Shown here one piece after another: positions 25,719-61,981 of a stretch of 64,000 bases of DNA (position 1 is the stretch's first letter; every line of letters begins with the position of its first letter). Made by a program: the position numbers and the translations under genes. The stretch covers positions 72,046,001 to 72,110,000 of the forward strand of contig CM059432.1 in NCBI GenBank assembly GCA_030390025.1. The letters are read 5' to 3'. The notes under the pieces were generated by a model. The model made no database searches, was not told the origin of the DNA, and worked only from the letters and a program-made list of their open reading frames with translations. This DNA is from Squalus acanthias (Eukaryota).

Positions 25719-27054
25719 GGGCTCGATTTTGCCAGGCCTGAGGAGGCGGGATTGGAGGCGTGTGAGGTGTTAAAATCGCAAAAAATGGCGGGTGGCTCTG
25801 ATCCCGCCTCCAGCCCACCTCCGAGCAATTTTCCCAGAATCAGGGTTTCAGACCCCGTTTCCATCCCGCCTCCAAGAGGCAGGATAGGCCCTTAAGTCCC
25901 TTAACAACCAGTTAATTGCCTCTATAATCCCATTTTGAGAGGCCTTTCTGATATTAACTCTTTTCCCCCGTCCTGCACGTCTCCTCTGGAACACGCCAGG
26001 TAATCCTGGCGGCCTCACAATTGGACTGCTTACTAACAGCTGCAGTTCCACCATTAAAAAGGAGTGTTCACCAATGATCATTTGCAGGTGGCAGAACTTT
26101 GTTGTCTCAGGTCTGGGGGAACTTTTAGCAGGCATATTCATTGTTGTGGAAGTTTGGAGCCTGACACCCATCTCCAGTGTGACCTCCTGGGAAACCCCTC
26201 TCCCCACCTTGACTGAGCGCTTCCTCAACTGAGGCATATACCAGAAGCATGGGAACCATTATTTCCTTTCCTCCTGGACATCAGATTCGGACGAAGACCA
26301 GCCGTGGCAGCAGCAGAACCATGAACAACAGCAGCACCAACAGCAGCAGCAACAACAGGAGCACCAAGCTGCTGCTCACCCACCTGAAGCTGCACAGGCC
26401 AGAAGGCGCCAGCGCGCGACCACATTGCTGCCCGGGATGCAAGGGACGCACTCATGTTGGCCAGATTTGCTTAGTCTGCACAATCAAACACTTTTGCCTC
26501 GCACCTTCTTACCAGAACATCGACAATGGACAAGTACCTGCAGATTCCTATCACTCTGACCACCATACTGACAATTGCAAGTCGCTCTAAGCCCTCAATG
26601 TGGAAGTCCCATTTGCGAAATGACACAGGCCACAACTTCAACAGTTTGCCATCAGAAATTTTTATCACAACAAGCAACTGATGGCATTTCAAAAATAAAC
26701 ACAACATAACACCCAAGTGACTACCCTTGTGACTACTTGTGCATTATCTTCCTCTTACGCATGCTCCTACGTGGTGCTTCCCCTGTGGTTTCAGCAGATG
26801 TGGAGACCCATTGCTCACTTTCTTGCTGCTCCTGTCTCAACACCTTTGGCGGCTGTCCTCTGGGGTTGCGAACCTGTGAGGGCTCGGCAACAGTCCGCTG
26901 CTCCTGCAGCTGTGCAGGGGATGAGATACCCATCTCAGTTGGGTGAGGACTGTGGTGGGGCTCTGACCGAGGGCTTTGCAGTGGCATGGTCGTGTGAGCG
27001 CTTGGAGAGGAGCCCCACTTCCTTGTTGTCTGCCACCAACAACCCTCTCATGGG

Positions 27055-28657
27055 TCAGCCCCACTTCAGAGCTAGCAAGTGGCTTGACAGCACCTTGCTG
27101 CACTTCAGGGGGGCCATGAGGACCCGTTTCTGCACTGGAAGTCCAACTCCAGAGGATTTCCATGAAGGTCTGGTTTCTATGCTGAATAGCTGACCATCGA
27201 GAGTTGCCAGTCTATTCTGAACAATGACCATGTTTTCAACACTCTGGCGACTTAGCGACGTAGCCATCCTCTCCTCTACCATAGCCATCCTTTCCACGGA
27301 GGCTGCCATCCTTTCTGTGGTGATGCGTTCATGCGCCAATGCCTCCACAAAGGCTCTGCTCATGTTCGCGATGGACTGCTCCATTCGCTCCACACACGCA
27401 GCGACCCTGGAGACAAAACCTGCCAGAGACTCCTGCACCTGTTCCTGGAGTTCCAGCACCGCTCTCCTTCTGGATGGACCCGGAGGCACAGGGTCGACAT
27501 GCAGCTGAGCTGAGCTGGCAGAGTCCTGCGCCCTCCGACGAAGACTCTCCACTGCTGTCCCTGTCTCCACCATCTGCTGATGCTCACTTGTGAGCTGTGA
27601 TACACCAGGTGACAACACTACTCTATCTCGCGAAGGTCCCACTGAGGTGTGAGTGTCTGCGCTGGTGCTGGGTGCGCTGAATTCTGCTGACGCTGCGCCC
27701 TCAGAAGTTGCAGCTTCCTCTGAGGAGTCTTGAAGCTCAGGCTGTTCCTCCTGGACAGTGGGGACGGGGGCTGTCGATGGTCCTGTGGGGGAGTAAAGGA
27801 AAGAGTTAGAGATGTGAGGTAAAGGTTGCATGCACATTGAATTGTGCAGATGATCATAAGTCAATCTGTTAGAACATCAGAATCATTATCAGTCACTCAT
27901 GCAATGTCAATGAGAGAGATGCCAAACTATTCTGTCATCAGCTTGCTGTGATGCGCCCGTCTGTCCGTCCCCCACTTGCGAATCTTCCCCGACACCGGCG
28001 ATTTCCAGGGCCGCCTCCTCCGAGGTGGTGAGCTGGGCTACTGAGGGTGGCCCTCCTCCTGTCCTCGCTCTTTCCCTTTTATTGTGGGCTCTCTTTTCCT
28101 GCAATGAGGGACACAAGTGGAGTTTGAGTGAGAATGAAGGAGTGAATGTAGAGAATCCATAGCATAGATGCTTAGAAGGAGACAAAGGGCCCTCCCTGTG
28201 TGTTGTAAGTTGTTGTCATTGCATCACAGTGATAGGGAGTGTGAGGGCTGCATGGTCGAATAGTTAAGTGAATGTGACCATAGAGAGAGAGGGAATGGGT
28301 GAGGGAGCAGGGATGTCAGTGTCAAGTAGGATGTGGAGGAAAAGGTTGGCAAAGCAGAGTGCTGGTGAGGAGAGGCGATGGGGATCAGATTGAGGGTGAT
28401 GGGAAAGTCATACTCACTTTTCCTGTGCGGAGAAGGTCATGAAACCTCTTCCTGCATTGCAGCCAGGCTCTGCGGCTCATAGAGATTGAGTTGACCTCCT
28501 GGGCCACTTGCATCCACACAGCTTTAGTCTGCTGGGGAGGCTTTTTCCTCCCTGAGGAAGGGAAGAGCACCTCCTTATTTAATCTTGCTCCCTCCACCAG
28601 AGCTTGGAGGGAGGCCTCATCGCACCTTGGAGCACACTTTGGCCTACTGCTGGACAT
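27055..28657 (-). pseudogene. Myb/SANT-like gene, exons 28657-28418, 28098-27939, 27782-27055; exon-2 donor is AT instead of GT
   Basis: APRCDEASLQALVEG...WLQCRKRFHDL and EKRAHNKRERARTGGGPP. All three exon frames are open. Confidence 0.8.
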
Positions 28658-28701
28658 AGTTGCTGAATGAAGCGATCACAACAATGGCCATAAAGTTTAA
28701 A

Positions 28702-29577
28702 GGGGGAAAAATTCAGTTGGTTGCGCCTCCCGTTAGCGTCTTAAGAGGGCGCTAATGGGGCGCAAAGCAGCTAGCGCCCGGGCGCGGCGATGTTTGCGCC
28801 GCTCACGAAATTAACTAGACATTTTGCGGCGGTGCTAAACACTACCGCCACGATCTCCTGCGCCGGCAGATCGTGACGTCAGTCGAGTGCGCAACGCCCC
28901 GGTATCGCCCCGGAGCGGATATTGAGTGGCGCCCCCTGCTAGCAACGACAGGGTGAGGGGAGCTTTTTGCAGTCAGGAAGGGACTGGGGGAGCGCTATTT
29001 AAAGGCGACTGCTTCCTGCCTTTTATTGTTGGTGACATTTTTGAACCACGCATTCTGAGAGAGAGAGAGAGACTTCTGGAGAGATTCAACGCTGTGTGAA
29101 GGAGTTTTGGGTACTGAGCAGCACTTTGCAGGTTCATTTTGATTTGCCCTTCCTTGTATCGATTTAGAAGAGACTGTGGGGGCTGCACTCTGAGCTCTTT
29201 CCCTGGTACTCTCCATTGTTCTTTCCAGCAAATTTGATGTACAGGTCTCTCCAGGCCGAGATTCAAGGCTGCAATGAGCAGAATGTGGATGGAAAGCAAG
29301 ATCAACCCTCCCCTTTAAGAACTGGCCCACGCCATTCTGTCTGTGTTCCATTGCTGACTGACATCACATGAGCTTCACCAGCGCTCTGAGGTAGCGCCTC
29401 GCTCCTCGGCCTTTGCGCCTTAAGACAGGTGTGAAGCGCCTGATTTAGCGCTCCAATCACCTCCGGGGGCGATAAAAGTCAAGTTTGCAGTCGGAGGCGA
29501 TAATTAGCGGCAGGCGCTAATCTTTGCGCCCGGCTGATAATTGCGCCCCAAATGGGGCAATACTGAATTTCTCCCCC
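28702..29577 (-). mobile_element. Non-autonomous Harbinger (876 bp), related to 37996-42102
   Basis: TIRs GGGGGAAAAATT / AATTTCTCCCCC and AAA TSD. It is an inverted copy of 35387-36279. Confidence 0.92.
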
Positions 29578-30079
29578 AAAGTCTCCAGAAGAAGCAAGGC
29601 TGCTTGCAGGCCTTAAATCCAGCAGCATTGATGACGTCATCGGAGGTGACTTTCTGTATGAAAAGACTCATTGGGTTTCCACATGCTGGAAATCAAGTGC
29701 CCAATTAGGGCAAAATCACACTTTTTTCCCACTTCACATCGGAGTTGGGGTCCTGACACAAAAACCACCTGACATGCCCCAACCCGCCCCCAATGGCAAA
29801 ATCAAGCCCATTGGGACCGTTTCTGGGTAAGGTGGGACCTGTACAAGCCGGACGGGTTACCCCTCAACAGAGCCGAGACCGATATTCTCATGGGGAGGTT
29901 TGCTAGTGCTGTTGGGGAGGGTTTAAACTAGCTTGGCAGGGGGATGGGCACCAGCATATAGGAGTAGAAAAGAGGAATAAGGTGCATAGAAGAGTCAGTG
30001 TGTTGGATAGTACTAGAGATGAAAGTAGTACTTGAGGCGGAAGGAGCAGACTTAAGAAAGACTACGAAAAATTCAAAAA

Positions 30080-33213: not shown

Positions 33214-35375
33214 TTGGCAGGCATCCTCTGGGGTTGCAAGCCTGTGAAGGCTCGCCAACAGTCTGCTGCTCCTGCGGCTGTGCAGGGGCTGAGACGCTAA
33301 TTTCAGTTGGGTGAGGACTCTGGTGGGGCTCTGACCGAGGGCTCTGCAGTGGCATGGTCGTGTGAATGCTTGGAGAGGAGCCCCCACTTCCTTGTTGTCT
33401 GCCACCAACATCCCTCTCATGGGTCAGCCCCACTTCAGAGCTAGCAAGTGGCTTGACAGCACCTTGCTGCTCTTCAGGGGGGCCATGAGGACACGTTTCT
33501 TCACTGGCAGTCCTACTCTAGAGGACTTCCATGAAGCTCTGGTTTCTCTGCTCAATAGCTGACCTCGCTCCTCCAGAGATGTCAGTCTATTCTGAACAAT
33601 GGCTATGTTTTCAATACCCTGGCGACTAAGCTGCTCCATGGCCGTAGCCATCCTCTCCTCTACCGTAGCCATCCTCTCCTCTACGGTAGCCATACTTGCC
33701 ACGGAGGTAGCCATCCTTTCCACGGAGGTTGCCATCCTTTCCATAGTGATGCGTTCATGCGCCAATGCCTCCACAATGGCTCTGCTCATGTTCGCGATGG
33801 ACTCCTCCATCCGCTCCACACATGCAGTGACCCTGGAGACAAAACCTGCCAGAGACTCCTGCACCTGTTCCTGGAGTTCCAGCACCGCTCTCCTTCTGGA
33901 TGGACCCGGAGGCACAGGGTCGACATGCAGCTGAGCCGAGCTGGGATCGCCCTGCGCCCTCCGACAAGGACTCTCCACTGCTGTCCCTGTCTCCACCATC
34001 TGCTGATGCTCACTTGTGAGCTGTGATATACCAGGTGACAACACTACTCTATGTCCCGAAGGTCCCACCGAGGTGTGAGTGTCTGCGCTGGTGCTGGGTG
34101 CACTTAATTCTGCTGACGCTGCGCCCTCAGAGGTTGCAGCTTCCTCTGAGGAGTCTTGTGGCTCAGGCTGTTCCTCCTGGACAGTGGGGAGGGGGGCTGT
34201 CGATGGTCCTGTGGGGGAGTAAAGGAAAGAGTTAGACATGTGAGATAAATTGTGCAGATGATCATAAGTCAATGTGTTAGAGCATCAGAATCAATATCAG
34301 TCACTCATGCAATGTCAATGAGAGAGATGAAAAACTATTCTGTCACCAGCTTGCTCTGATGCACCCGTCTGCCCGTCCCCCATTTGCGCATCCTCCTTGG
34401 CTCCCACGATCTCAAGGGCCGCCTCCTCAGTGCTGGTGAGCTGGGCTATTGAGGGTGGCCCTCCTCCTGTCTTCGCCCTTTCCCTCTTATTGTGGGCTCT
34501 CTTTTCCTGCAATGAGGGACACAAGTGGAGTTTGAGTGAGAATGAAGGAGTGAGTGTAGAGAATCCATAGCATAGATGCTTAGAAGGACACAAAGATGGA
34601 GTGAGGTCCCAAGACCAAGGGCCCTCCCTGTGTGTTGTAAGTTGTTGTCATAGCATAACAGTGATAGGGCGTGTGAGGGCTGCTTTGTCAAATAGTTAAG
34701 TGAATGTGTACATAGAGAGAGAGAATGGTTAATGGTGCAGGGATGTAAGGGTCAAGTGGGATGTGGAGGAGGAGGTTGACATTGAAGAGTGCTGATGATG
34801 AGAGGCGATGGGGAGCAGATTGAGGGTCATGGTGATGTCATACTCACTTTTCCTGTGCGGAGAAGGTCATTAAACCTCTTTCTGCACTGCAGCCAGGTTC
34901 TGCTGCACATTGAGATGGCACTGACCTCCTGTGCCACTTGTAGCCACACAGCTTTTGTCTGTTGGTGAAGATTTTTCCTCCCAGAGGAAGGAAACAGCAC
35001 TTCCTTCTGAGCTCTTGCTCCCTCCACCAGAGCTTGGAGGGAGTCCTCATCAAAGCGGGGTGCGCACTTGGATCTTGAGCTTGACATCCTTGCAAAAGAA
35101 ATCCCTCAGAACTGTGTCCAGAAACAGATGTAAAGCAGAAAATGAACCAAGGCTGTTTGCAGACCTTAAATGCAGCTGCATTAATGACGTCATCAGAGGT
35201 GAGTTTCAGGACCAAAAGACTCATTGGGCCAGGGGTCCCCACACACTGGAAATCAAGTGCCCAATTAGGGCAAAATCGCCAAATTATCCCGCCTCACATC
35301 GGAGGTGGGAGCGGGACCCGCCCACCAACTGACTCGCCCACCAACTGACCCGCCCCCAATGACAAAATCCAGCCC
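33214..35375. mobile_element. Second 'Myb-only' Harbinger family copy, left end deleted
   Basis: Homologous to 26845-29809 without the nested element. The right TIR GACAAAATCCAGCCC is followed by TAT. Confidence 0.88.
33424..35087 (-). CDS. Harbinger Myb/SANT-like DNA-binding protein, predicted 394 aa; exons 35087-34848, 34506-34347, 34208-33424
   Basis: GT-AG introns in phases 0 and 1 give an open spliced frame: APRFDEDSLQALVEG...RTWLQCRKRFNDL, TGGGPP, and coiled-coil heptads. Confidence 0.75.
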
Positions 35376-35386
35376 TATGACTCTAT

Positions 35387-36279
35387 GGGGGAGAAATTCT
35401 GTATCGCCCCATTTGGGGCGCAATTATCGGCCGGACGCAAAGATTAGCGCCTGGCACTAATTATCGCCACCGACTGCAAACTTGACTTTTATCGCCCCTG
35501 GAGGTGATTGGAGCGCTAAATCAGGCACTTCACACCTGTCTTAAGGCGCAAAGGCCGAGGAGCGAGGCGCTACCTCAGAGTGCTGGCGAAGCTCATGTGA
35601 TGTCAGTCAGCAATGGAACACACACACAATGGCACGGGCCAGTTCTTAAAGGGGATGGTTAATCTCACTTTCCATCCACATCCTGCTAATTGCAGCCTTG
35701 AATCTCGGCCTGGAGAGACCTGCACATCAAATCTGCTGGAAAGAACAATGGAGAGTACCAGGCAAAGAGCTCAGAGTGCAACCCCCACAGTCTCTTCTAA
35801 ATCGATACAAGGAATGGCAAATCAAAATGAACCTGCAAAGTGCTGCTCAGTACCCAAAACTCCTTCACACAACGTTGAAACTCTCCAGAAGTCTCTCTCT
35901 CTATCTCTCAAAATGCGTAGTTCAAAAATGGCACCGACAATAAAAGGCAGGAAGCGGTCACCTTTAAATAGCGCTCCCCCTTTCCCTTCATGACTGCAGA
36001 ACGCTCCACTCAAACTGTCGTTGCTAGCGTCAGGCGGTAAGGCAGGGGGCGCCGCTCAATATCCGCTCCGGGGCGATACCGGGGCGTTGCGCACTCGACT
36101 GACGTCACGATCTGCCGGCGCAGGAGATCGTGGCGGTAGTGTTTAGCGCCGCCGCAAAATGTCTAGTTAATTTCACGAGCGGCGCAAACTTCGCCGCGCC
36201 TGGGCGCTAGATGCTTTGCGCCCCATTAGCGCCCTCTTAAGGCGCTAACGGGAGGCGCAACCAACTGAATTTTTCCCCC
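35387..36279 (+). mobile_element. Non-autonomous Harbinger (893 bp), copy 1 of tandem pair
   Basis: GGGGGAGAAATT / AATTTTTCCCCC ends with a TAT TSD. Confidence 0.93.
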
Positions 36280-36290
36280 TATGACTCTAT

Positions 36291-37183
36291 GGGGGAGAAA
36301 TTCAGTATTGCCCCATTTGGGGCGCAATTATCGGCCGGGCGCAAAGATTAGCGCCTGGCGCTAATTATCGCCACCGACTGGAAACTTGACTTTTATCGCC
36401 CCTGGAGGTGATTGCAGCGCTAAATCAGGCGCTTCACACCTGTCTTAAGGCGCAAAGGCCGAGGAGCGAGGCGCTACCTCAGAGCGCTGGCGAAGCTCAT
36501 GTGATGTCAGTCAGCAATGGAACACACACACAATGGCACAGGCCAGTTCTTAAAGAGGATGGTTAATCTTGCTTTCCATCCACATCCTGCTCATTGCAGC
36601 CTTGAATCTCGGCCTGGAGAGACCTGCACATCAAATGTGCTGGAAAGAACAATGGAGAGTACCAGGCAAAGAGCTCAGAGTGATGCCCCCACAGCCTCTG
36701 CTAAATCGATACAAGGAATGGCAAATCAAAATGAACCTGCAAAGTGCTGCTCAGTACCCAAAACTCATTCACACAACGTTGAATCTCTCCAGAAGTCTCT
36801 CCCTCTCTCTCTCAGAATGCGTAGTTCAAAAATGGCACCAACAATAAAAGGCAGGAAGCGGTCACCTTTAAATAGCGCTCCCCCTTTCCCTACATGACTG
36901 CAGAACGCTCCCCTCAACCTGTCGTTGCTAGCGTCAGGCGGTAAGGCAGGGGGCGCCACTCAATATCCGCTCCGGGGCGATACCGGGGCGTTGCGCACTC
37001 GAGTGACGTCACGATCTGCCGGCGCAGGAGATTGTGGCGGTAGTGTTTAGCGCCGCCGCAAAATGTCTAGTTAATTTCGCGAGCGGCGCAAACTTCGCCG
37101 CGCCTGGGCGCTAGATGCTTTGCGCCCCATTAGCACCCTCTTAAGGCGCTAACGGGAGGCGCAACCAACTGAATTTTTCCCCT
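36291..37183 (+). mobile_element. Non-autonomous Harbinger (893 bp), copy 2 of tandem pair
   Basis: Same TIRs (terminal C>T) and TAT TSD. Highly similar but not identical to copy 1. Confidence 0.93.
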
Positions 37184-37190
37184 TATGACT

Positions 37191-37357: not shown

Positions 37358-38352
37358 AGTGTCAGCTTTTATATATTTGGACCACTCCCAGCTTTTCCTC
37401 TCCACCACCTCTCTCAACCCAGTGATCATCTCTGTGCTGCCAGACTGCCATTCTGACATCAAATCATGGCTGAGTCAAAAATTCCTCCAAATGAATATCA
37501 GGAAGACTGAAGCCATCATATTGGGCCCCTCAATAAACTCTGCTCCCTCGCAACTGATTGTATTTCTGTCCCCAGCCACTTGTTTAGGGTGAACCAGACT
37601 ATGTAAAATCTTCGTGTCCTGTTTGATCCAGAGCTGAGTTTCAATCCCCATGTGCTAGCCATCACTAAGACCATTTATTTCCACCACTGCAACATTGCCC
37701 ATGTCAGTCTCTGCTCTATTTCATCTCCTCTGTTGCAGAAACAGTGATCCATGCTGTTATCACCTCTAGACTCAATTTCCCCAATGTTCTTCTTGCCAGA
37801 CTCCCATCTAAAACAAAGAAGGAAAGAAAGAAATTGATTGATGGTATTTATATAGCGCCTTTCACAACCTCAGGACTTTCCAAAGCGCTTCATAGCCAGT
37901 GAAATACTTTTGAAATGTAGTCACTACTGTAATTTAGGGAAACGCAGCAGCAAATTCAACTTGTCGAAAACTCAGCCATTCATGTACCACACTAAGGGGG
38001 AAAAATTAGGTCGCGCCCCGTTTGGGGCGCAAATATCGTCTGGACGCAAAAATTAGCGCCTGGCGCTAATTATCGCCACTGACTGGAAACTTCACTTTTA
38101 CCGCCCCGGGAGGTGAGTGGAGCGTTGATCAGGCGCTGCACACCTGTCTTAAGGCGCAAAGGCCGAGCAGTGAGGCGCTAACTCAGCGCGCGAGCGCAGC
38201 GCAGGTGCTGCCAGTTAGCGAGGGAACACAGACACACTGGCGCCAGCCAGTTCTTAAAGGGGGGGGGGCCAACTTGCTCCCCAGCCACACCCTGCTCATT
38301 GCAGCCTTGAATCTCGGCCTGGAGAGACCTGTAATCCATTTTGCTGCCAAGG

Positions 38353-40118
38353 ATGGAGAGGGTGAGAGAACGAGCTCAGCGCTTCACCGAGCGGGCCTTG
38401 GATGCTCTGGTTGGCGCGGTGGAGCGCAGAAGATCTATACTCTTCCCTGAGAGTGGCAGGAGGCCTTTGCCACGCGAGTACAGAAGAGTGTGGAGGGAGG
38501 TGGCTCAGAGCGTCTCCTCCAGGAGCATGGTGCCCAGGACCCATGTTCAATGCCGCAAAAAGTTCAACGACCTCACTCGGGTCGTCAGGGTGAGTGGCTT
38601 TTTCTCAATACCTCTCCATCCCTCCATCTCAACCTCACTCTATGGCCAGAGGGTCTTAAAACCCCAATGCACAACACTCATCCAACACCTATGGCCCTTT
38701 CATGAAACACACACACACATTCCACACTTTGCATACAGTAAGGGCTATTCACCTATGGGAGGCACATCAGGCAAGACCATGGCTGTATATTTACTCAGAT
38801 GCTGTCCTTTTTCTTGCAGGCCAAGCTGGCGCATAATAGGAGACAGCAGCAACGGACAGGTGGAGGGCGGCCTCAGCTGCAACCCCTCAGCGATCTTGAG
38901 GAGCGCGTCCACAGGATTGTGGCAAGCCGGGTGATCGGTCCCGTCGCCACTGGAGACGCCGATCCCGTTCTGGACAGCAATGGTAAGGTCATCACCTTTT
39001 TGTCCTCTGTCCTTCCACTTGTCCCTCACAACACCAGCCTTTGACACTTTCAATCCAACTTGCTAACTCGCTGCACTTATTCCTCCCTTACTGCCACCCT
39101 GTCCTCACGCTAAAGCCACTCTTGTACCTCCCTGCTTTCAGATGGTGATTCACCAGCTGAGGAGACGGGCCCTGAAGCTGCCAGTGGGAGTGAAGCTGCA
39201 GCCAAGGAGGAAGAGGAAGCCGGAGCATCAGTGCCACCCTCTCCCGAGGAAGCCCATGCCCACACTGGGAACACGCCTTCCCTGGCGGGGAGCAGGGGGG
39301 AAGGGTCTGATGAGGGTGAAGCTCCAGGACCCAGCGGGCTGCAGCAACGCCATGGGGGTAGGGAAGAACGGGGGCCTTCTCCCCAGAGGGAGAGTATGCC
39401 AGCGACTCCTACTGCAATGGACGCAGAGGAGGAGCGGCTGATCGCAGAAATGAACACCCAGGCGGTGGGCATGCACACTGAGCTCATGGGTGCAGTGGGA
39501 AGGGTGCCCGAATGCATTGAGTCACTGGCAAGGAGTGTGGAGCACTTCGCTGTAGCACAGGCGGATGCCACACTAAAGCTTAGTGCTGCAATTCAGTCAC
39601 TGACTGCCGTGATCCCATCTCTGACTGCTCTCATGCAGACTCAGATTGAGGCCACGCGAGCACTGACTGCTGCCAACCTCGATGGTTCGTTCACATGTCC
39701 CCGGGGCTCTCACCGCGCCGCAGCAGGACAGCAATCTGTGCTCCAGCAGATTGCTCCGGATGCTGAAGTGCTGCCCCGTGGGAGTGCCAGTGTGTCGGTC
39801 GAGCAGGGAGTTGCTGTCCTCTCTCACGATGACAGCATTCCTGCTGCCAACACTGTCACTTCTCCACTGCACTTGCCACCGCCTGTAGGACAGACTGCTG
39901 CCGCCCATGCAGAGTTGGTGCAGTCTGCAGCCGGGCCCTCCAGGCCCAGAACTGGTCGAGGCCGTCCTTCAGGGGCATCTGCAGTGTCAGGGTCTGACAA
40001 TCAGCAGCCTTCCACCAGCCATGCTGCAGCCACTGAGGTCCCATTACGGAGGAGCAGTAGGGTAAGAAGGGGGGAAGTGCGCAAGGGAAGGAGATCACCC
40101 TCGAAGGGCAAAAAGTAG
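38353..40118 (+). CDS. Harbinger Myb/SANT-like DNA-binding protein, predicted 458 aa; exons 38353-38589, 38820-38982, 39142-40118
   Basis: MERVRERAQRFTERALDALV...WREVA...RTHVQCRKKFNDL. Donors are GTGAGT and GTAAGG, acceptors TTGCAG and TTTCAG. The spliced length is 1377 nt and in frame. Confidence 0.88.
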
Positions 40119-40430
40119 GAGGTGTGACAAAATGCTGGTCATTTTTTTATTAAAGGCCGAGGTTCGTGGTCCAACTTTTGTTTAGTGTTTTGGACATTAT
40201 CTCCAGGTTGTGAGAACCAGTTATGTTAATGACTGTTTTTTTGTGTTTATTTCTATGAGTTTGTCATGAGGAATTGACACACACAGAGTTTGTAAAATAA
40301 ATAAGTTTTTGTATTCAAAATATACATGTTTGGTGTTTGGAATCATTGGTGCCTTGGCCGGCTTAGGGGTTGCGTGCTGGGTTCATTGATGTTGTTAGCA
40401 ATGGCAGAAGCCATTTCCACAGCAGGGGCC

Positions 40431-41591
40431 CTAGAAGCGGCTTGCTATCAGCCGTTGACGGACGGCCCTTGCAGTTTGACCATTGTGGGCCGCCCTCCCG
40501 CCTTGGTGCTGCTGATGATCATCCTCCTCGTCCTCTTCCTCCTCTTCCTCCTCCTCCTCTGGTGGTGCTCCAAGGCCTGGTGGCATTGGCTGGGTCCTGA
40601 GGATTGCCATGTTATGCAACATGCAGCACACAACTACGAAGTTGGATACTCGCTCAGGCGAGTACTGCAGGGCTCCTCCAGAATGGTCGAGACAGCGGAA
40701 CCGTTGCTTCAGCACGCCGATTGTGCACTCAATGATGTTCCTGGTAGCTTGATGGCTCTCGTTGTACCGCAGCTCAGCAGGGGTGTTGGGCGTACGGAGC
40801 GGTGTCATCAGCCAGGTGCTCAATGGATACCCCTTGTCCCCGAGAAGCCAACCAACTGGCTGATGTGGTGCCTCGAAAAGTTCTGCCACAGTAGTCTGGC
40901 GCAGGATGAAAGCATCGTGGCAGCTGCCAGGATAGTGGGCATTGACAGCTAGTATCAGCTGTCTGTGGTCACAGACCAACTGAACATTCAAGGAATGGAA
41001 CCCCTTTCTGTTCCGGAGTTCCTCGGCATTCTCATGTGGAGCACGCAAAGCCACATGCGTGCAGTCAATGGCGCCCTGCACCATGGGGAAGCCCGCTATC
41101 CTCGCAAAGCCCAGAGCGCGGTCACGCTGCTTGTCTAGGGTCATGGGGAAAGAGATGAACTCTCGTCTCCTTTTAAAGAGGGCATTTGTGACCTGCCGGA
41201 TGCAGCAATGCACCGCGAACTGGGAGATATTGGCAAGGTCCCCAGCAGCAGCTTGAAATGAGTCAGTAGCATAGAAGTTGAGAGCCACTGTGACCTTCAC
41301 TGCCACCGACAGAGACGTCCTGGACCTCAGTTGAGGCTGCAGATCTGGCTGCAGCAGGTGGCAGAGCTCAGTGACCACCTCCTTGCTGAATCGCAGCCTT
41401 CGCAAACACAGCTCCTCAGACATATGAATGTAGGAGAGCTGTTCACGATATACCCTGGGAGGGTAAGCTCTCCTGTACAGACGCCTGTTGGCCCTCCTCC
41501 GTCTGGCCATCATTGCCACTCTCTCTGTGCGTCTCTGTGTCCTCCGATTCAGCTGGAGCAGGACGACGCCCCCATTCAGTGCAGCCCCCAT
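40431..41591 (-). CDS. Harbinger DDE transposase (HARBI1-like), 386 aa from first ATG
   Basis: GAIDCTH, NRKGFHSLNVQLVCD, PGSCHD, LLGDKGY, RNIIECTIGVLKQRFRCL and CCMLHN. No stops. Confidence 0.95.
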   Translation of the reverse strand: MGAALNGGVVLLQLNRRTQRRTERVAMMARRRRANRRLYRRAYPPRVYREQLSYIHMSEELCLRRLRFSKEVVTELCHLLQPDLQPQLRSRTSLSVAVKVTVALNFYATDSFQAAAGDLANISQFAVHCCIRQVTNALFKRRREFISFPMTLDKQRDRALGFARIAGFPMVQGAIDCTHVALRAPHENAEELRNRKGFHSLNVQLVCDHRQLILAVNAHYPGSCHDAFILRQTTVAELFEAPHQPVGWLLGDKGYPLSTWLMTPLRTPNTPAELRYNESHQATRNIIECTIGVLKQRFRCLDHSGGALQYSPERVSNFVVVCCMLHNMAILRTQPMPPGLGAPPEEEEEEEEEDEEDDHQQHQGGRAAHNGQTARAVRQRLIASRF

Positions 41592-42781
41592 AGTCTCTTT
41601 GCAAGCAAAGTTATGAAGGACAGCAACCAAAGTACCAGCGAAGTTAGGATCAGTAGGCAAAACTACCTCACAAAGTGTTGACTCAATGCAGAAGTCTCTC
41701 TTTCTCTCTCTCCGAATCTCTCTCTCTCTCTCAGAACAAGTGGTGCAAAAATGTCAACCACAGAAAAAGACAGGAAGAGGCCCCCTTTAAATAGCGACAC
41801 CCCCAGCCCCACAGCGATTGATAGCGTTCCAGTCTTCCGGTCGTTGGATGCGCCAGGCGGTAAGGCAGGGGGCGCCACTCAATTTCCGCTCCGGGGCGCC
41901 ACAAGGGCGTTGCACCATGGAATGACGTCACAATCTGCGTGCGCAGGTGGTCGCGGCGGTAAAGTTTAGCGCCACCGCACAATGTCTAGTTAAGTTCCCG
42001 AGCGGCGCAAACATCGCTGCGCCCGGGCGCTAGCGGCTTTGCGCCCCATTAGCGCCCTCTTAAGGCACTAACGGGAGGCGCAACCAACTGAATTTTTCCC
42101 CCTAAGTCTCACTTGCCCATCTCCCCTGTCCTCACTGACCTACTATGGCTCCCTGTCCCCCAGTGCATGAAATTCAAAATCCTCATCCTCATCTTCAAAT
42201 CCATCTGCAGCCTCATCCTACCTTATCTTTGCAACTTTCCTCAGACCTATATACCCTGAATTCTGTGGTCATATGACTTCTGCCTCTTGTACATTCCTCC
42301 TTCCCTTTGCCCCACCACTGGTAGCCAACCTTCAGCTGCCTCAGCCCTGTTCTTTGGAATACTTCATTAAACCCCTTCACCTTCTACACCCTCTTCCACC
42401 TTTAAATGCCTTCTCAAAACCCATCTTTTCAATCTAGCTTTTAGTTGCCATCTTATCTCTCCCTCTGTGGCTCGGAATCCATTCCCTACTCTCTGTAAAG
42501 TGGCTTGGACGTTTTCTACATTAAAGATGTCATTATTACACGTAAATTTTCTTTTACTATTACATTTATAAAATATGTATTTGTAACATGATTCAGTAAA
42601 GATGATGGACTTAATAAGCTTTCAAGAACCAGCATTATAGTTTTACTATATCCAGTGTTTTCCTTTTGTCATAGTTAAAGCTTTGACACAAAAAATATTC
42701 CTGATTAATATGGTGAGTCAGTGCTGCAGTGTAAATTAAACTGACTCACATTCTCAATTCTCATTTTAATCCAGGAATTTA

Positions 42782-45700
42782 GGCTCCAATAATAATTCTG
42801 AGGTGCTTTCGGAGTTGGGGGCGTGGAGGGTGTGATATCGGGTGTGAAACCCGGAAGAAGTTTCAGCACGTCTGTCTGTGGTACTTTACCTCATTATAAT
42901 ATTACTTCCAGGTTTGGCGTCGAATGCATAGCAGTGGGTGTGGTGCAGACCCTCACAACGCAATCTCAACTGGAATATTTAAAGAGCCAATCCAAAAATG
43001 GAATTTGGAGGAGTTAGGAGTTTGCACAAAGAGAGGGAGAAGTTTCATCATGGATTCAGGATGGTCAAGGGCTGCGCCTCAATTTAACGATGCATTGCTC
43101 AGTGCAGTGAGGAGTCGGAGAGAGATACTGTTCCCCAGCAACGGGAGGTAGAAACCTGCTGCTGCACAAAGAAGGCGTGGCTGGAGATGGCCGGGGAGGT
43201 CAACAGCAGGAGCTTTGTGCCACGCTCCTGGATTCAGTGCAAGAAGCGCTTTAAATGATCTAACCAGGTCAAGCGCTGACAGTGGTGGCAGGGACAGCTG
43301 TGGAGATTTCACATTGGAGGGCACAGCCCTCTCCAAGCTCTGCCCAGCTGGACACAGATGTTGTACCACGGGGGCCATCGATGAAAAGGATAATCATTGA
43401 GGGACAACAGAAAATCTGTAACGTAATGACAGGTCTTCCATGTACACTGTCCACGCTTGCAGAGATAATGGAGGGCTCCAGCTCAAGCATGAGTGGGTTG
43501 ATGTTGCAGGGCATTGCGAGGATGTCTTCTTCCATGGATAGATTGGCCAACTCTGTGGAACATCAATTGCAGTAATCAAATGAGTCCATACAGGCCTTGA
43601 CCATGACCATGCAGACAACATGTCTGGTGCCTTAAATAGGATGGCAGACACCTTAGCCTTGACCTTACAAAGCATCACTGATCTGCACCAAGCTGCTCTC
43701 CAGCAGAGTGGTAGGAGTGAAGTGTGGCTGGCCCATGAGAGGGATGATGGCAAAAGGGGACATGGAAGTGGGAACTCCACTCAAAGTGCTCACACTCCTC
43801 AGCTGTTGCTCCCCCCACCCCCCCACCCCCCTCAGCCAGTACCCAACATGCTGCCTTCCCTCCTGATGGCTGAGTCCACCCCTGCACAGGTGCAGGTGGA
43901 GCAGTCTTTGGTGGGGCCCTCACTGGCTCCAACACCCAGAGGTTGCGGCCAAGAGCATCTCAGCAGTCAGAGCAGGGATCTAAATAGCCTGTCGCTTCCT
44001 CTGCTCAAGTCACATGGGTTGCACCACAAAGGAGCAGTAGGAAAAGAAGAGTAAAGCTTTGTAGTTGCACAAGGGTATGCACATGGGTGGTTGAGAAAAT
44101 GTTATGTTGTAAAGTTTCCATTGTTTATTAGAATCACATAAAATTTATTACTGTGTACCACTTTCCCCTGTTGCCCATTCTTGGTTGCTGGGTAGCAATT
44201 CGCCTTTTCAGTTGCTTGTTGATAAATGGGAAAACATGAATTGACAGGGACCAATGGGTGGATGTGCAATGGGTGGATGGTTGGTTACAGGACTGCTTTG
44301 TGTCAGTGGAATTGGGGACGGGGGTGTGGTGGGGGGAGAGTGGCCGTTGGATGTGATTGTTACATTGGTCCAGTGGTAGTGACAAACTGAACCCTACAGC
44401 TATAAGGGAAGTCTTGGCATCCCGGGCAGCAAGGTGAGTGGCTGGTGCTGCATTAGGGTCGCTATCTTCATCCTCCTCCTCCTCTTCCTGCTCCTCCTCC
44501 TCCACTTCATTGGATTCATCCACAGACGATAGCAGCGCTTTGTTCCTGCTGCAGCTCCAATCCTCGCTGCTGCACAATGTTGTGCAGAGCATAGCACACG
44601 ACAATCCTTCTGGAGACCCTGGCTGGCAAGTACAGAAGGTCACCTCCAGATCCGTTGAGGCACCTGAGCATGCTGATTGCTTGCTCAATGATCCATCTGG
44701 TTGTCATATGGCTGTCGTTGTACTGCTCTTGGGCTTAATTTGTGGGGTTTCTCTCGGGAGTCATCAGCCAAGTTTGAAGGGGATATCCTTTGTCTCCTAG
44801 CAGACACCCCTTAAATCTGCTTGCAGGTCCAAAGAGGTCGGGCAGCTTAGACTGTCGCAGGATGAAAGCATCATAGCATCTCCCCGGGAATCTGGAGCTC
44901 AGCTACATAAACCTTTCCTTGAGGTTGCACACCAGCTGCACATTGATGGAGTGGAAGCCCTTTGATTTACAAATACTCCTGGTTGATCTGGGGTGGGCAG
45001 ATTGCCACGTGTGTGCAGTCAATGACACCCTGCACCTGTGGGAAGCCAGCCAGAGATACCAACCTGAGAACCCGCTCATTCTGATGAGCATCATCAGAGG
45101 CAAAGTTAACATAATTGCTGGCCCTGGCAAACAATCCATCAGTGACCTGCCTTATGCATTTGTGTGCAGCCGACTGGGAGGTGTCTCCGGTAGCGCCCTG
45201 GAAGGACCCGGAGACAAAAAAGTTGAGGGCGGTGGTCACTTTCACAGCCACTGGTAATGTGTGGCCACCAGGTCCAGCAGGGAGCAGGTCTTCTTCTAGA
45301 AGGCTGCAGATGTGTGCCACCACCTGATGCGACAATCTCAGCCTCCGGAAGCACTGCTCTCCAAGAAGTTAAGGAAGCTGAGCATCTGCCTGTACACCCT
45401 GTTACACGGGTAATGCCTCCTGCGAGCTCGGCCCCTCTGCTGCTCCCCTCTCTGCTGACCACCTGCAGGTCTCTCCCCAGCAGGCTGTTGCTGCTGCTGA
45501 TGGTCATCTTGCTCCTCGTGCGAGGTCCAATCTAAGGCACCCATGACGCCACCCAAAAATAAATGATCTTGAATCTCACTATCTCCAAAGTGCACAAAAT
45601 AGTCTCGAATCACAAGTACTCTTGACAAACCCTTTCCCAGTGGGAGGTAAGAAAGCAGCCCTGAGCACTGACTAGTTATTGCAATTGCCTGCCTTTTAAT

Positions 45701-46011: not shown

Positions 46012-46142
46012 TTAGTTTCTGTTCAATATCAGTTTAACATTGCAAAAAATAAATGATTTAATGGTGCTACTTTTCAAGTTATTTAAATAGAATTTCTATT
46101 ACAGCATTCTACTCTGACAGGTATAAGTATTTTAAAGTACAA

Positions 46143-47562
46143 GGGGCTAAAAATTCATGTCTTCAGCGACACGAGATGGTGATAAAGCGCCTGCCACCAC
46201 TCTACCGCCAGCTGGTGGCAGTTCCAGTGGCAGGCACCATTTTTGAGTTGCCGGTATCGATGCCGGTAAATTCAATCGCTGGGGACATTTAAATCACTGA
46301 GATCATGACGTCAGTGAGTGGGCAACGCTCACTTGACGCCCGATCTCCTAATGTGGTTTTGGCCATTGCAGTTACCGGATGGAGAAAGCAACGACAGGTA
46401 GAGCTGGCGTGCTGCAGCAGGAAGCCGGCTCCAGCAACGATATTTAAAGGGATCATCACCAATCACTTGCACCTGACATGGTTTTGCAGTTTGAGTGGCT
46501 GTGTGCTACTTCCTGCAATTGCAAGAGTATTCTTTAGTTATTTGGTATCAGGGAGTGTTCTGGCAAGTACAATACTCATTCATGTAGTTTGAAGCGTTTC
46601 AAAAATAAACATATGCTAAAGGTCATGTACTGACTGTACTGACAGTTGACCTCGCCCTCCAGGATCTACGGCGGAGGGAGAGGAGGTAGCGAGAAAGACG
46701 GGAACATGTGTGCAGAGAGAGGAGGAGGGCCATCAGGGCTCTCAACAGGAGGCCTTACCCACCTAGGGTCTTCCGACAGCACTTCTCCTACCTCCAATTA
46801 AGCGAGAAGCAGTGTATTAGGAGATTCCGCTTCACCAAGGAGGTAGTCACAGAACTCTGCCACCTCCTGCAACCAAACCTCCAGCCTCAGACCAGGGTGA
46901 CCACAGCTCTCCCAGTGGCATTCAAAGTCGCCATGGCCCACAATTTCTTCACCAGCGGACCCTTCCAGTCTGCAACAGGAGATATATCTAACATCTCACA
47001 GTTCACCGCAGAAAAGGCAGGCGGCCTGGGACAGCTGTTCAGTGTACTCTTTTAAATTTGGGTGGTTAACCAGATGAACTGTAAATCAATAAAACTTTAA
47101 ATAAACCTTAACAAATTAAATTAAAATTTGGTAGCCCGGGGTGATGATGCACTCCAGTCCCCACGGCGCCCACCGGTCGCGGAAAAACTCAAGCGTGCCG
47201 GCGGACACCGAGCTGTTCAGTGTACTCTTTTGATTTGGGTGGTTAACCGAATAAACTGTAAATCAATAAAAACTTTAAATAAACCTTAACAAATTAAATT
47301 AAAATTTGGAAGTCCGGGGTGACGATGCACTCCAGTCCCCGCGGCGCCCACCGGTCGCGGAAAAACTCAAGCGTGCCGGCGGACACCGAGCTGTTCAGTG
47401 TAACGCCAATGAGCTTGAGTTTTAAGACTGTAATCATGACTAAAATCATGTTAATGATGAGTGAGCACGAACTTTGCATGCTAACTAGACCCTCTTCAGG
47501 TGACGTAGCTTAACCTTAGTTAGTCTAAACACTGCCCATTTCTTGGCTATATTGAATTTCTA
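46143..47562. mobile_element. Internally deleted Harbinger (family of 58330-62327)
   Basis: GGGGCTAAAAATT start, transposase 5' remnant (46620-47005), and a right end homologous to 62150-62327. Confidence 0.85.
47033..47402 (-). repeat. Two 178-bp tandem units resembling Tx1-like LINE 3' ends, bounded by three copies of AGCTGTTCAGTGTA
   Basis: Repeat starts at 47033, 47211 and 47389. The minus strand encodes SVSAGTLEFFRDRWAPRGLECIVTPDFQILI* followed by an AT-rich UTR. Confidence 0.7.
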
Positions 47563-57520: not shown

Positions 57521-58809
57521 AATAAGTGTGATAACAAAATACTTCCTTTTTTTGTTGTCTTTCCCAATATCTTGATTGTATTGGCAAAATTGAGAACATG
57601 TGGTAATTCTACCAACCCAACCCATAATCCACCTACCCAGCAGGTGAAACATTACCACCGATAGAGGATCTAAATGCTAAATGGCTCGCCCTCGCAGAGG
57701 CTACTGTAATACTCGGCAGTGCAACACCCCCCTCCAGAAAATCACATCATTGATTTTGTAGAAACAAGGTTGTTTGGTAGCAATGTGATTTGTTTTCATT
57801 TTTCCACTCTTAGCGAAGGAGATGTGATTTGAAGACTTACACGATGTAGGTTTCTTAAGATGCTGGTAGTCTGTTACCATCACATAGCAGAAAAAAGGCT
57901 CTTTCCGCAGTTACGAGTCTGGGCCTGCTTCATATCAGCTTCTGTGATGGCAAGAGAAAACTATACTGCAAAATGTGTTTGCCAGATTTCAGATTACCTT
58001 GCATGCACTATAAAAAAGTGTCCTGAGTGATTAATGTAACATTTGTTTCACTGACTTTTAATTTTTTTGAAGACAATGTTTCAATAAAATATTTACATCA
58101 GAACCTGTTCCCATTGCATATCAGCTTTATACAGTGGACAGTGTCTATCAATCTTTGAATTCTATCAGTCTCTGAGATAATGCAATTGGATCTTGCAGCT
58201 GTTTCTTTCAGATCAAGGCCAACAAAGATGACATGTAATCCATCAGCAAAGATGACATGTAATCCATCATCAACACCAAAAGCTATCTAATACACATTCT
58301 GTATTCTTGACAGTTTGTTTAAATATGAAGGGGGAGAAATTAGTGTGTTTAGCGCCATGAGATGGCGCTAAAACGCCGGTCGGCACTCTACCGCCAGCTG
58401 ATGGCAGTTCCAGCGGCGCACGCCATATCCAAGTTGCCGGTAGCGTTGCCGCAAAACAATCTCGCCGGGGGCATCGCAATCACGGAGATCATGACGTCAG
58501 TGCATGTTGACGCCCGATCTCAAAACTTCGTTTTGGCCATTGCAGTTACCGGCTGGAGAAAGCAATGACAGGTCAAGGTGGCGTGCAGCAGCAGGAAGCC
58601 AGCTTCAGTGACGATATTTAATGGGATTATCACCAATCACTCGCACCTGACAGGGTTTTGCAGTTTGAGTGGCTGTGCGCTACTTCCTGCAACTGCAAGA
58701 GTTTTCTTCAGTCATTTCAAGGCTAGTTGGTATCAGGGAGTGTTCTGGCAAGTACAAAACTCCATCATTATTTTTGAAACGCTTCAACCTACAACACTTG
58801 TTAAAAGTC

Positions 58810-59910
58810 ATGGGGCTATATTGGCAGTCGACCTCGCCCTCCAGAATCTACGGCAGAGGCAGTGAAAAAGACGGGAACATTTGTGCACAGGGAGTAAGGC
58901 CATCAGGGTCTTCCGACAGCACTTCTCCTACCTCCAATTAAGTGAGGAGCAGTGTCTTAGGAGGCTCCGCTTCACCAAGGAGGTCGTCACAGAACTCTGC
59001 CACCTCCTAAATCCAGACCTGCAGCCTCAGAGCAGGACGACCACGGCTCTCCCAGTGGCCCTCAAGGTCACCGTGGCCCTCAATTTCTTTGCCAGTGGAT
59101 CCTTAAAGTCTGCAGCAGGAGACATATCTAACATCTCAGTTAGCTGTCCATCAGCACATCCGGGAGGTCACTGAGGCTCGCTACACCAAGAGAAGGGATT
59201 ACATTGGCTTCCCGATCACCAGAGAGATGTAGGACGAGAGTGCATGTGGCTTTGCCTGGATAGAGGGCTTCCCCATGGTGCAGGGTGCCATTGACTGCAC
59301 CCACGTGGCTTTGCGGCACCATATACCAATCCTGAGATTTTCCATAACTACAAAAGCTACCACTCACTTAATGTGCAGTTGGTCTGCGACCACACACAGT
59401 GAATCCTCAATGTCAATGCCCGCTATCCTGGCAGCAGCCACGATGCCTTCATCCAGTGCCAGAACGGTGTGCCAGACCGGTGTGCCAGCACTCTTGCAAC
59501 CACCACGTCAAGCTCTAGGGTGGCTGCTCGGAGACCAGGGCTATCCGCTCTCCACCTGGCTCATGACTCCCCTCCGCAACCCTGACACTCATGCCCAGCA
59601 CTCATATAATGAGAGCCATGCTGCCACCAGAAACATCATCGAGCAGAAGGCTTATTGAAGCAACGGTTCCGCTGCCTTGACCGCTCGGGAGGAGCCCTCC
59701 AATACTCGGCTGAATGGATGTCTCATTTTGTGGTGGTCTGCTGCATGCTCCACAACTTGGCCATCATGAGGGCACAGCCCTTGCCACCAGGGACTGCGGG
59801 ACACCTCAGGAGGACGACGAGGAAGAGGAGGAAGGGAGGAGGCAGCCAGACAATTGGCCTTCCAGATGGGCTGTCCATAACCGGCTCATCAGACTCTGAT
59901 TCGCATGATT
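58810..59910 (+). pseudogene. Harbinger transposase pseudogene
   Basis: RLRFTKEVVTEL, GAIDCTH, LLGDQGY, RNIIEQ and CCMLHN across frames. Confidence 0.9.
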
Positions 59911-60084
59911 GAAACCCCAGATTCCCGCAGCTCACCACATTCCCATCATACCATCCCTGTCTCACGCTATATCACAGCATCCTCCTGGGTGCAAAGTTGA
60001 AATGAGAGACACCATAAAGCTTCCAAACACAATTAATAAATTTATCTATATTCATCTGACATATATTTGCATGAACACTATTAA

Positions 60085-61981
60085 CTAATCACCCTTGTGC
60101 AATCCCTTAGTGTCTGTCTTTTGTGTGCCCTTTCCTGATCTAGTGCTCCTACGCAGTGCTCCCCCAGTAGCTGCCGCATGGCTGGTGGAAGGCTGCTGAG
60201 TTTCCATGCAGGAGACGTCAGATGGTCTTGCGGGATGACCTCGACCAGCTCTGGCCCTAGAAGGCCCGGCTGTAGACTGCGCCACCTTGGCATGTGCGGC
60301 AGCAGTCTGGGCTGGCTGGCTGACAGGCAGCTGCAAGGGCAATGGTGGAGTGGCAGTGGTGGGAGTAGGAATGCTGTCATCCTGAGAGAGGACAGCAGGT
60401 TCCTGATCCATTGACCCACTGCCACTCACCAGGTGTGGTGCCTCAGCATTCCTAGCAATCTGTTGGAGCACAGATTGCTGTCCTGCTGCAACACCGTGCA
60501 AGCCCCGGTCGACGGTGGCAAGCCCAGCCATGATGGCAGCAGTCAGAGCTTGGGTGGCTTCAAGCTTAGATTGCATGAAAGCAGTCAGAGCTTGGATGCC
60601 ACCAAGCAGAGACTGCATGACAGCAGTCTGAGCTTCCGCTGCAGCACTAAGACTTTGGGTCGCTTCCACCTGTGCTGCAATGGAAGCTGCGACATCGCTC
60701 ATCAAGCACGCCATCACGTCTGGGTCGCCACGGTCTCTCTGGGAGTGTACCGTCATTTCTGACTGGAAATCCTTGGCTCCAGGCAATGTTGGCGGCGGAC
60801 TCCTCCATGCTCCTTGACATTGCCAAGAGGCACTCTGGCATGCTTGCCACTGCATCTATCACTTCCGTGTGGATGCTCATCACCCTTTTTCTGAAGGCCT
60901 CCCCATCAAGGTCCTCAACTGAGTCCTGTGCAGCAGAACTTGCACGTGAACTCGCCCTCCAGGGAGCTGGCTCCCAAGCTACCCTTTCCCCCTGGCCTTG
61001 CTGCAGCTCACTCGTGCCCGGTGCCTCACCCTGTGCAGATCCCACTACTACACTAGCCTCTAAAGAAGGCGTAGTGCCAGTATCTGAGTTGGTGTCTGCG
61101 AGTGGAAGCTCCAGTGAAGCGGTGTCATCGTCACCCTCCTCTTCTCCCCTTCGCTCTCTGCGGTGCCCTCGGGGACAGGCTGCTCGGTGCTTGCTGATTA
61201 TCTGAAAGCAGAGAGGCAGGTTACGGTGAGGGGAGCGGGGATGCGAGAAGGCAGAAATGCATGCATACAGCATGAGTAGCTTGAAAGTGAGAAAAGATTA
61301 TGGGCCGAGGGGGAAGTGGGATTTGAGAAGAACGAGTAGGAATGAACCTACCGTTGTTGTCCCCAAGGGGGTCAACATTGCCGGTGGCCACGGTGCCCAC
61401 GATCTGGCGCCCAATGATCTCCAGCGTTCGACTCTCCAGCTGGCTCAGCTCTTCAACGTCTGCCTGGCCCTGCCTGTCTGGTCCTGCTCCCGTCGATTGT
61501 GAGCGACCTTAGCCTACAAGAGCAAAGGAAGTGTGTTAGTGAGTGTGGTGCAATGTGTTTGGGTGATGTGCTTGCCATAGTTGAGTAGCTGTCATTGTGT
61601 GCAAGGTGTGAGATGTGGGTGTGAGTGTTGATAGGTAGAGATTGTTGGTGGGTGAGTGCTGGGGGTGTGGTGCATTGAGCAGCGTGTGAAGATTGTGGTA
61701 CAGATGTTGGTATGTAGCATTTGTTGAAGCCTTCACTCACCCTGACCACCCGTGTGAGCTCGTTAAATTTCTTTCTGCACTGGGTGTGGGTCCTGGGGAC
61801 CCCAGTGCTGCCCATGACATGGTCTGCTATCTCCCTCCACAGTGTGGCCGACTTGTGGCAAGGGCCTCCTGCCAGTTGGCAGGTACAGGACCACCCACCT
61901 TCTCTCCACCGTGAAAACCAATGCCTCCCAAGCATCATCCGAGAACCTACGGGCTCTCTCCCTCCATCTCCAGTCTGCCAT
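60085..61981 (-). pseudogene. Harbinger Myb/SANT-like pseudogene
   Basis: MADWRWRERARRFSDDAWEALV, QCRKKFNEL and a C-terminal QQPSTSHAAAT..LRRSTR, with frameshifts. Confidence 0.85.

Follow-up and report, generated by a model that had tools for sequence, protein, structure and literature searches.

The vertebrate Harbinger system that has been assayed, Harbinger3_DR and Harbinger3N_DR of zebrafish, is a two-gene system that was reconstructed (PMC2836001, PMC3016246), as a preliminary description of the DNA studied here had correctly stated. In Harbinger3_DR and in Ping/Pong, the Myb-like protein binds the ends of the element and imports the transposase (PMC2836001). Here, we describe a full-length Harbinger-type element with 2 genes, located at positions 37996-42102 (4107 bp) of a stretch of 64,000 nucleotides from the shark Squalus acanthias (assembly GCA_030390025.1, contig CM059432.1, positions 72,046,001 to 72,110,000 of the forward strand). 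This whole stretch, which was the DNA analysed, is referred to as the window, and all positions are given within it. The element belongs to a family that seems to have been mobile recently, and this copy is probably carried along as a passenger and not itself a working master.

The NuwaII group of the PHIS superfamily has been described with the target C|TNA|G, terminal inverted repeats (TIRs) that start with GG, open reading frames (ORFs) for a DDE and a Myb/SANT protein, and a length of 4-5 kb (Han et al. 2015, PMC4482050). The same study classified 88 PIF/Harbinger, 11 NuwaI, and 22 NuwaII families with 2 intact ORFs as potentially active, and the hosts of the NuwaII two-ORF families include turtle, amphibian, and bony fish (PMC4482050). 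In the sea kraits, copies of Harbinger-Snek with intact ORFs number 269 in L. colubrina and 1 in L. laticaudata; RNA-seq support was reported, and the family was proposed to be possibly still transposing (PMC8437027). The LatiHarb1 elements of coelacanth and the Harbinger elements of Pleurodeles are abundant, diverse, and reported to be expressed, in genomes that are slowly evolving or large (PMC3787270, PMC5741667, PMC9179366).

Shark genomes are described as dominated by long interspersed nuclear elements (LINEs) and as containing few DNA transposons, which account for 1.58% in the grey reef shark (PMC12498223). In the excerpts used, no Harbinger was found in the elephant shark and other cartilaginous fish were called for (PMC9179366), while 2 shark genome papers (among PMC12498223, PMC8455134, and PMC12637253) name the Harbinger superfamily merely as a repeat class. 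No paper on a young burst of Harbinger elements in sharks was found in full-text searches, a scope that excludes Repbase, Dfam, subscription journals, and supplements.

Structure of the element and its genes

The element is bordered by TAA on either side and was inserted within a decayed LINE-like repeat, which we take to be L2. Its features are as follows, with the type of evidence in brackets.

37993-37995, unstranded: left target-site duplication (TSD) TAA, site C|TAA|G (gapless in-silico empty site)
37996-38007, plus strand: left TIR, 12 bp, perfect (end comparison)
37996-38295, plus strand: left subterminal region, CpG-rich, with 6 copies of GGCG[CG][TA]AA (motif and CpG counts)
38353-38589, plus strand: exon 1 of the Myb-like gene, with the Myb/SANT domain (Pfam, splice conservation)
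38820-38982, plus strand: exon 2 of the Myb-like gene (splice conservation)
39142-40118, plus strand: exon 3 of the Myb-like gene, with a low-complexity linker, an alanine/leucine-rich middle, and a basic C-terminus
40119-40430, unstranded: tail-to-tail 3' region between the genes; polyA-like hexamers at +40149 and +40296 and, on the other strand, at -40146 and -40246
40431-41591, minus strand: DDE transposase of 386 amino acids, D176/D252/E288 (Pfam, homolog alignment, structure model)
41803-42102, minus strand: right subterminal region, CpG-rich, with 6 copies of the motif (motif and CpG counts)
42091-42102, minus strand: right TIR, 12 bp, perfect (end comparison)
42103-42105, unstranded: right TSD TAA (end comparison)

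When the element was deleted in silico together with one TAA, the flanks could be aligned without gaps to another copy of the host repeat at about 24414. The insertion site reads ACAC-TAA-GTCT, and the short TIRs and the 3-bp TSD of the PHIS or PIF/Harbinger superfamily are both present (12 bp; TAA/TAA). The perfection of the TIR, GGGGGAAAAATT, is limited to 12 bp, with 14 of 16 matches when the comparison is extended to the first 16 bases. For the terminal 300 bp at either end, the observed/expected ratio of CpG was 0.84 and 1.09, compared to 0.47 in the interior and 0.27/0.14 in the flanks. The GGCG[CG][TA]AA motif, which was selected from the same ends in which it was counted, occurred in 6 + 6 copies in the two 300-bp ends and in none of the 3507 interior bases, with a mean of 0.29 and a maximum of 3 copies in shuffled sequence (300 shuffles). 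Its core recurs at the ends of 2 other families within the window.

The transposase gene starts with an ATG at 41591 on the minus strand in a strong Kozak context, and the frame contains no stop codon. The protein matched the Pfam domain DDE_Tnp_4 (E=1.7e-38), and the alignment with homologs indicated that the catalytic residues D176, D252, and E288 are all retained, such that both the DDE_Tnp_4 transposase and the D, D, E triad of the superfamily are present. Among the best 120 of 301 database matches, nearly all relatives were from cartilaginous fishes, which points to a cartilaginous fish as the most likely host. The closest were gene models from sharks and rays that bear the name "putative nuclease HARBI1", with a best identity of 67%, and none of these was within 90% identity. 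It was also noted that one database protein of 523 amino acids, P0008, consists of a Myb-like N-terminus fused to a transposase, which is possibly a gene-prediction artefact. The structure model of the transposase had a predicted local distance difference test (pLDDT) score of 90.6, and the best PDB neighbours of the predicted fold were mostly integrases and DDE transposases, every one with E above 0.001. Neither a sequence search, with 4 chance matches, nor Foldseek, with 0 matches at E up to 0.001, identified a solved relative from which residue-DNA contacts could be mapped.

The second gene within the same TIRs encodes a Myb/SANT protein, as in other members of the superfamily. The 3 exons splice in frame into a protein of 458 amino acids, and exon 1 matched Myb_DNA-bind_5 (E=3.9e-10). 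Since many alternative combinations of GT and AG are likewise in frame, the in-frame joining is weak evidence by itself. However, all 4 splice sites aligned with conserved GT/AG dinucleotides in both of the 2 paralogues examined, which are located in the window and are roughly 65% to 75% identical. A search with exon 1 for full-length Myb-like relatives gave a single match among 298 candidates, which was limited to the Myb domain, and the gene model thus rests on the paralogues in the window. The polyA-like hexamers between the 2 genes may serve as 3' signals for both.

The preliminary description, which had been made from the letters alone, proposed an intact and potentially active two-component transposon at this position. 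The span of the element with its TSD, the uninterrupted transposase with the D/D/E motifs, the in-frame Myb-like gene of 3 exons with canonical splice sites, and the CpG-rich ends were all borne out by the analyses above, while the claim of perfect TIRs held for 12 bp but not beyond.

By analogy with the mechanism described in the literature, the Myb-like protein would bind the repeated subterminal motifs, and the copies of GGCG[CG][TA]AA are candidate binding sites. It would then recruit and import the DDE transposase, which would excise the element and insert it at a palindromic site similar to ACAC-TAA-GTCT with a duplication of 3 bp. Binding between the 2 proteins is established knowledge for Harbinger elements.

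Abundance and age of the family

To place the copy in its family, the content of element words was screened in 23 sequencing runs, and the contigs of 4 of these (X1, X2, X8, and X15) were aligned to the window. At least half of the sampled element words were present in 18 of the 23 runs, which represent 6 organism labels, A to F, and 2 unlabelled rows. The summed contig depth over the element was 2.4e5-1.6e6 in X1 and 3.6e5-1.5e6 in X2, which are both DNA runs of organism A, and 170-370 in the outer flank bins, where the flank contigs had a depth of their own of 6-17. The summed depth is not a copy number and is used here only as a sign of very high copy; the family probably comprises thousands of copies.

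A word share of 0.83-0.86 translates into a difference of 0.5-0.6% from any sequence in the runs concerned, and one of 0.53-0.63 into a difference of 1.5-2%. Runs X6-X18, with organism labels A to F, contained 51-63% of the element words, a sharing that may reflect vertical descent among relatives, contamination, or horizontal transfer. The aligned contigs differed from the element at 31 of 2207 bp in X15 and at 13 of 1280 bp in X8, based on 6 of the 8 listed pieces in each run. The 2 remaining pieces per run were excluded as belonging to a second subfamily, with 14/225 and 18/244 differences in X15 and 14/177 and 13/195 in X8, corresponding to a difference of 6-8% from the element. In run X15, which is from another organism and was inspected for the orthologous site, 3 flank bins had zero depth and the overall depth was low, and it shows the presence of the family only. 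Judged from these distances, the family is young and contains subfamilies. The element is one full-length member of a Harbinger-type DNA transposon family (PHIS; target C|TAA|G) that is young and present in very high copy in the shark genome.

The same data can be read as the remains of a past burst, in which the family is inactive, the insertion is old and in place but still segregating or lineage-specific, and the frames are open by chance. The word shares of 51-63% in low-coverage-like runs with 6 organism labels would then mean that the main sequence is shared across organisms at a difference of about 1.5-2%, which together with the divergence of the second subfamily fits such a history, and the slow turnover of shark genomes could be invoked for the long segregation. 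The open frames fit it as well, as the probability that both would be free of stop codons under neutral change ranges from P 0.67 at 0.5% to P 0.20 at 2% divergence. Openness is thus likely by chance at such divergence and is no evidence of selection. Against an inactive family stand the flanks of the insertion and the distribution of the empty allele, which are described below and make this reading distinctly improbable.

Private substitutions of the copy

The copy was compared with the runs in a table of differences, of which 40 of 186 rows were shown; a difference was considered private if another letter accounted for at least 94% of the depth in both X1 and X2. According to our tally, 13 of the 40 rows were private to the copy. 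Those shown for the Myb-like gene were one silent change and 2 replacements in exon 3 (E155K and E182A), which are located in the linker outside the Myb domain, and this gene looks undamaged from its sequence. Another 8 were located in the transposase gene, namely I6N, R22T, G110D, P152L, F192L, and R289C (family to copy) and 2 synonymous changes. The ratio of non-synonymous to synonymous substitution rates (dN/dS) for these private changes was 0.94 (6 non-synonymous and 2 synonymous changes; 882 non-synonymous and 276 synonymous sites), and the dN/dS values between families in the window were 0.21 and 0.10. A third control between families (44970-45359) was dropped, as it had been compared ungapped and was saturated. 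At an omega of 0.2, the probability of at least 6 non-synonymous changes among 8 was P 0.044. We propose that the copy drifted without selection after it left the main lineage.

Constraint on the transposase was scored on the 116 of 252 aligned homologs that retain D/D/E and span at least 250 amino acids. Of these homologs, 96 of 112 have G at position 110, against 1 with D; at position 192, F or Y is found in 102 of 116, against 2 with L; and at position 289, 104 of 116 have R, Q, H, or K, against 3 with C. In the structure model, residue 110 is placed in the turn that joins helices 96-109 and 113-120, while residue 289 adjoins the catalytic E288. Because the transposase carries G110D, F192L, and R289C, we lean towards the view that it is impaired, and the copy is probably weakened or dead. 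The claim of an intact, potentially active element is hence upheld for a full-length two-gene element of a young family, but not for a clean intact copy. Inactivating substitutions relative to the family, which the preliminary description had named as a finding that would speak against its claim, have candidates in these 3 changes, which are private and located at constrained sites, the damage being judged from that constraint.

Several observations weigh against an impaired transposase. Eight changes represent a small sample, for which an omega of 0.3 is not rejected (P 0.13), and they come from 40 of the 186 rows of differences. The copy deviates at 1 of 91 columns that are conserved in at least 80% of the homologs, which is tied for the best of 59 near-complete rows (median 10), and at 8 further columns the residue of the copy is rare but does not appear among the private rows shown. 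The catalytic triad is complete, and the effect of G110D, F192L, and R289C on activity is a prediction.

A fully competent autonomous element, in which the substitutions are tolerated and which belongs to a small, currently active sub-lineage, would account for the low number of changed columns, for the intact state of the open frames, the D/D/E motifs, the splice sites, the TIRs, and the subterminal motifs, and for an insertion that is probably polymorphic (see below). It is also consistent with the 1 to 3 homologs with intact D/D/E that have D, L, or C at positions 110, 192, and 289, respectively. We consider it unlikely, since 3 private changes fall at constrained sites, the 6:2 ratio of private changes is what would be seen in the absence of selection, and 2 deep DNA runs contain hardly any of the copy's letters. 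Nor was evidence of transcripts obtained from any of the aligned runs. The only candidate for RNA, by guess, was X8, the contigs of which cross intron 2 unspliced (38971-39170, 0 differences), with depth also in introns and flanks. It had depth in none of the joint rows shown (15 of 105), and it resembles DNA and is uninformative on expression.

The insertion site in other samples

The alignments of record 8 in X1 and record 24 in X2 both started at 42106, which is the first base past the right TAA, at letter 99 of the record. They extended over 395 bases with 1 difference in X1 and over 358 bases with 0 differences in X2, and never entered the end of the element; their depths were 10.2 and 5.7. 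With a filled allele, the alignment would have continued into the element, and with an unrelated insertion that ends in TAA it would have started at 42103. A start at 42106 argues for an empty site. Under this model, the 98 preceding letters would begin at 37898, just past a stretch similar to short interspersed nuclear elements (SINEs) in which the left-flank contigs end (37872/37873). The copy's own letter had zero depth at 41263 in X1, of which 55% was read, and at 40866 in X2. On this indirect evidence, the site is probably empty in X1 and X2, the 2 DNA runs of organism A that were aligned, and the insertion is probably polymorphic. This argues for recent mobility, and the family seems to have been mobile so recently that the site would remain empty in other samples.

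A number of points weaken this conclusion. The row for the empty-site joint is absent from the 15 of 105 joint rows shown, all of which have a depth of at least 26 in at least one run, and the 98 letters were not displayed. The window may come from a species closely related to organism A and not from that organism, and one of the runs may represent the other haplotype of the source individual. Rare variants are also dropped from contigs, and zero depth is no proof of absence.

An empty site could also be produced if the element was ancestrally present and later left these alleles by precise excision, which is usual in PIF/Harbinger elements, as in 109 of 110 mPing events in yeast (PMC2836001), and an empty allele is indistinguishable by sequence from an ancestral one. 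However, the same event would be needed in both samples, and it would itself require recent transposase activity. Together with the alternative that the gene pair has been domesticated by the host, as reported for other Harbinger pairs in vertebrates (PMC9392472), we regard this as very improbable. Domestication was rejected on the basis of the intact TIRs and TSD, the high-copy family, the insertion within a LINE-like repeat, and the neutral private changes.

The flanks of the apparent empty alleles differed from the window at 2 of 659 and 1 of 621 bases, in addition to one gap of 10 bases. This is below the 6 differences expected if a private change of 0.5% had arisen in place (P 0.04 and 0.014). 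Since the flanks differ less than the private divergence predicts, it is simplest to assume that the mutations of the copy predate its move to the present site. On the other hand, the comparison is not significant at a private change of 0.35% (P 0.16 and 0.07), and this clock assumes equal mutation rates and zero recombination. The low divergence of the flanks (0.2-0.3%) also argues against the inactive family considered above, and an empty allele in both of the aligned DNA runs of organism A argues for an insertion at low frequency.

The proteins of cut-and-paste elements act in trans. Most likely, the copy would have reached the site in this manner, carried by the proteins of better copies, which is consistent with a passenger in a recently mobile family. 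A stronger version, in which transposition of the family continues in present-day sharks, naturally competent two-gene copies exist, and this insertion is a recent product of them, is in our judgement evenly balanced.

Neighbouring elements in the window

Three short non-coding elements related to the full-length element were identified by alignment.

35387-36279, plus strand: M1, Harbinger-type element of a sister family, 893 bp
36291-37182, plus strand: M2, 892 bp, 96% identical to M1
28702-29577, minus strand: M3, 876 bp, 94-95% identical to M1 and M2

The 893-bp element and its relatives had been taken for non-autonomous relatives of the full-length element. However, their ends are not nearly identical to those of the putative autonomous element: the identity of M1, M2, and M3 to the ends was 83-85% over aligned columns and 75-82% when gaps were counted. 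Their left TIR differs from that of the element at one base, and the duplications at these elements are TAT, AAA, and TAT. On this comparison they are a sister family and not deletion derivatives of the copy, and are thus not the best donor for an assay of this element, as had been suggested. The GGCG[CG][TA]AA motif is also present in their subterminal regions, which makes cross-mobilisation plausible.

M1 and M2 are placed head to tail (35376-37190), with 3 copies of the 8-bp unit TATGACTC between and around them. The pair may represent a local tandem duplication or 2 insertions into a short tandem repeat, and the right flank of M2 has an extra T. M3 is nested inside another element with TIRs at 25719-29809 (ends GGGCT.GATTTTGCC, apparent ATT duplication), which contains a Myb-like exon at 28633-28418 and gave no match to a transposase. 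A relative of the latter, with 85% identity, is located at about 33224-35375.

Harbinger-related pieces are very dense in the 64-kb window, with a total of 5 stretches that resemble a transposase and at least 7 that resemble a Myb-like gene, and the 4 transposase-like stretches other than that of the element described here are truncated or contain stop codons. Another Harbinger family is represented by 3 copies (2799-5730, 46141-47561, and 58330-62326) with mutual identities of 75-78%, in which the transposases are truncated or contain stop codons, and the left ends bear the motif TTAGCGCC, which is also found in the ends of the full-length element. A decayed Harbinger with 2 genes is located at 43089-45442, where the transposase contains a frameshift and stop codons. 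Finally, a non-coding element of 531 bp at 62762-63292 has a 12-bp TIR identical to that of the copy and a TAT duplication.

Comparison with known systems

The site C|TAA|G, a TIR that starts with GG, and 2 ORFs are found in the element as in NuwaII, although this is based on one site (PMC4482050). In contrast to the NuwaII families listed there, the host is a cartilaginous fish, and the perfect TIR is 12 bp compared to a range of 13-46 in NuwaII (PMC4482050). The TSD 5'-TWA-3' of the PIF/Harbinger group is also matched by the TAA of the element, again at one site (PMC4482050), while the 5'-CWG-3' of NuwaI is not. The element thereby fits the definitions of both PIF/Harbinger (TWA) and NuwaII (C|TNA|G), as judged by the target site and the ends. 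The shark and ray models called "putative nuclease HARBI1" have automatic names and are mostly decayed transposon copies, and since the element has TIRs and a TSD it is not a domesticated HARBI1 gene.

Native vertebrate Harbinger elements with intact ORFs are already in print, with 269 fully intact copies of Harbinger-Snek reported in Laticauda colubrina (PMC8437027). Like Harbinger-Snek (PMC8437027), the shark element points to a recent and massive expansion in a vertebrate, with full-length copies that contain 2 ORFs and with solo-ORF and short non-autonomous relatives. The shark element differs in its host lineage and in the empty-site allele suggested here, and the 2 are likened by description, not by sequence. 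LatiHarb1 and the Harbinger elements of Pleurodeles differ likewise in their hosts, which are not sharks.

The single copy matters little, as it is young, probably impaired, and part of a superfamily that is well known. If confirmed, a very abundant and recently mobile family with segregating insertions would add to the picture of shark repeats and offer population markers, and the reconstructed zebrafish system could be compared with a two-component transposase that is close to its native state. If the family is active today, it would represent a vertebrate Harbinger/NuwaII system that works in its native form, for which no resurrection is needed, and its palindromic target would be an extended one.

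A close counterpart in design is Harbinger3_DR of zebrafish, with which the element shares a DDE transposase together with a Myb-like gene, a short G-rich TIR, and a 3-bp duplication. The flanks ACAC...GTCT are the same as in the zebrafish target AAACAC-CWG-GTCTTT at 4 positions on each side of the core (PMC2836001, PMC3016246). The core itself is TAA in the shark element and CWG in Harbinger3_DR; the former occurs natively in a genome with its frames open and is known here from sequence alone, whereas the latter was built from a consensus. With an active shark family, a TNA core beside the CWG core of Harbinger3_DR would allow the determinants of target choice to be mapped.

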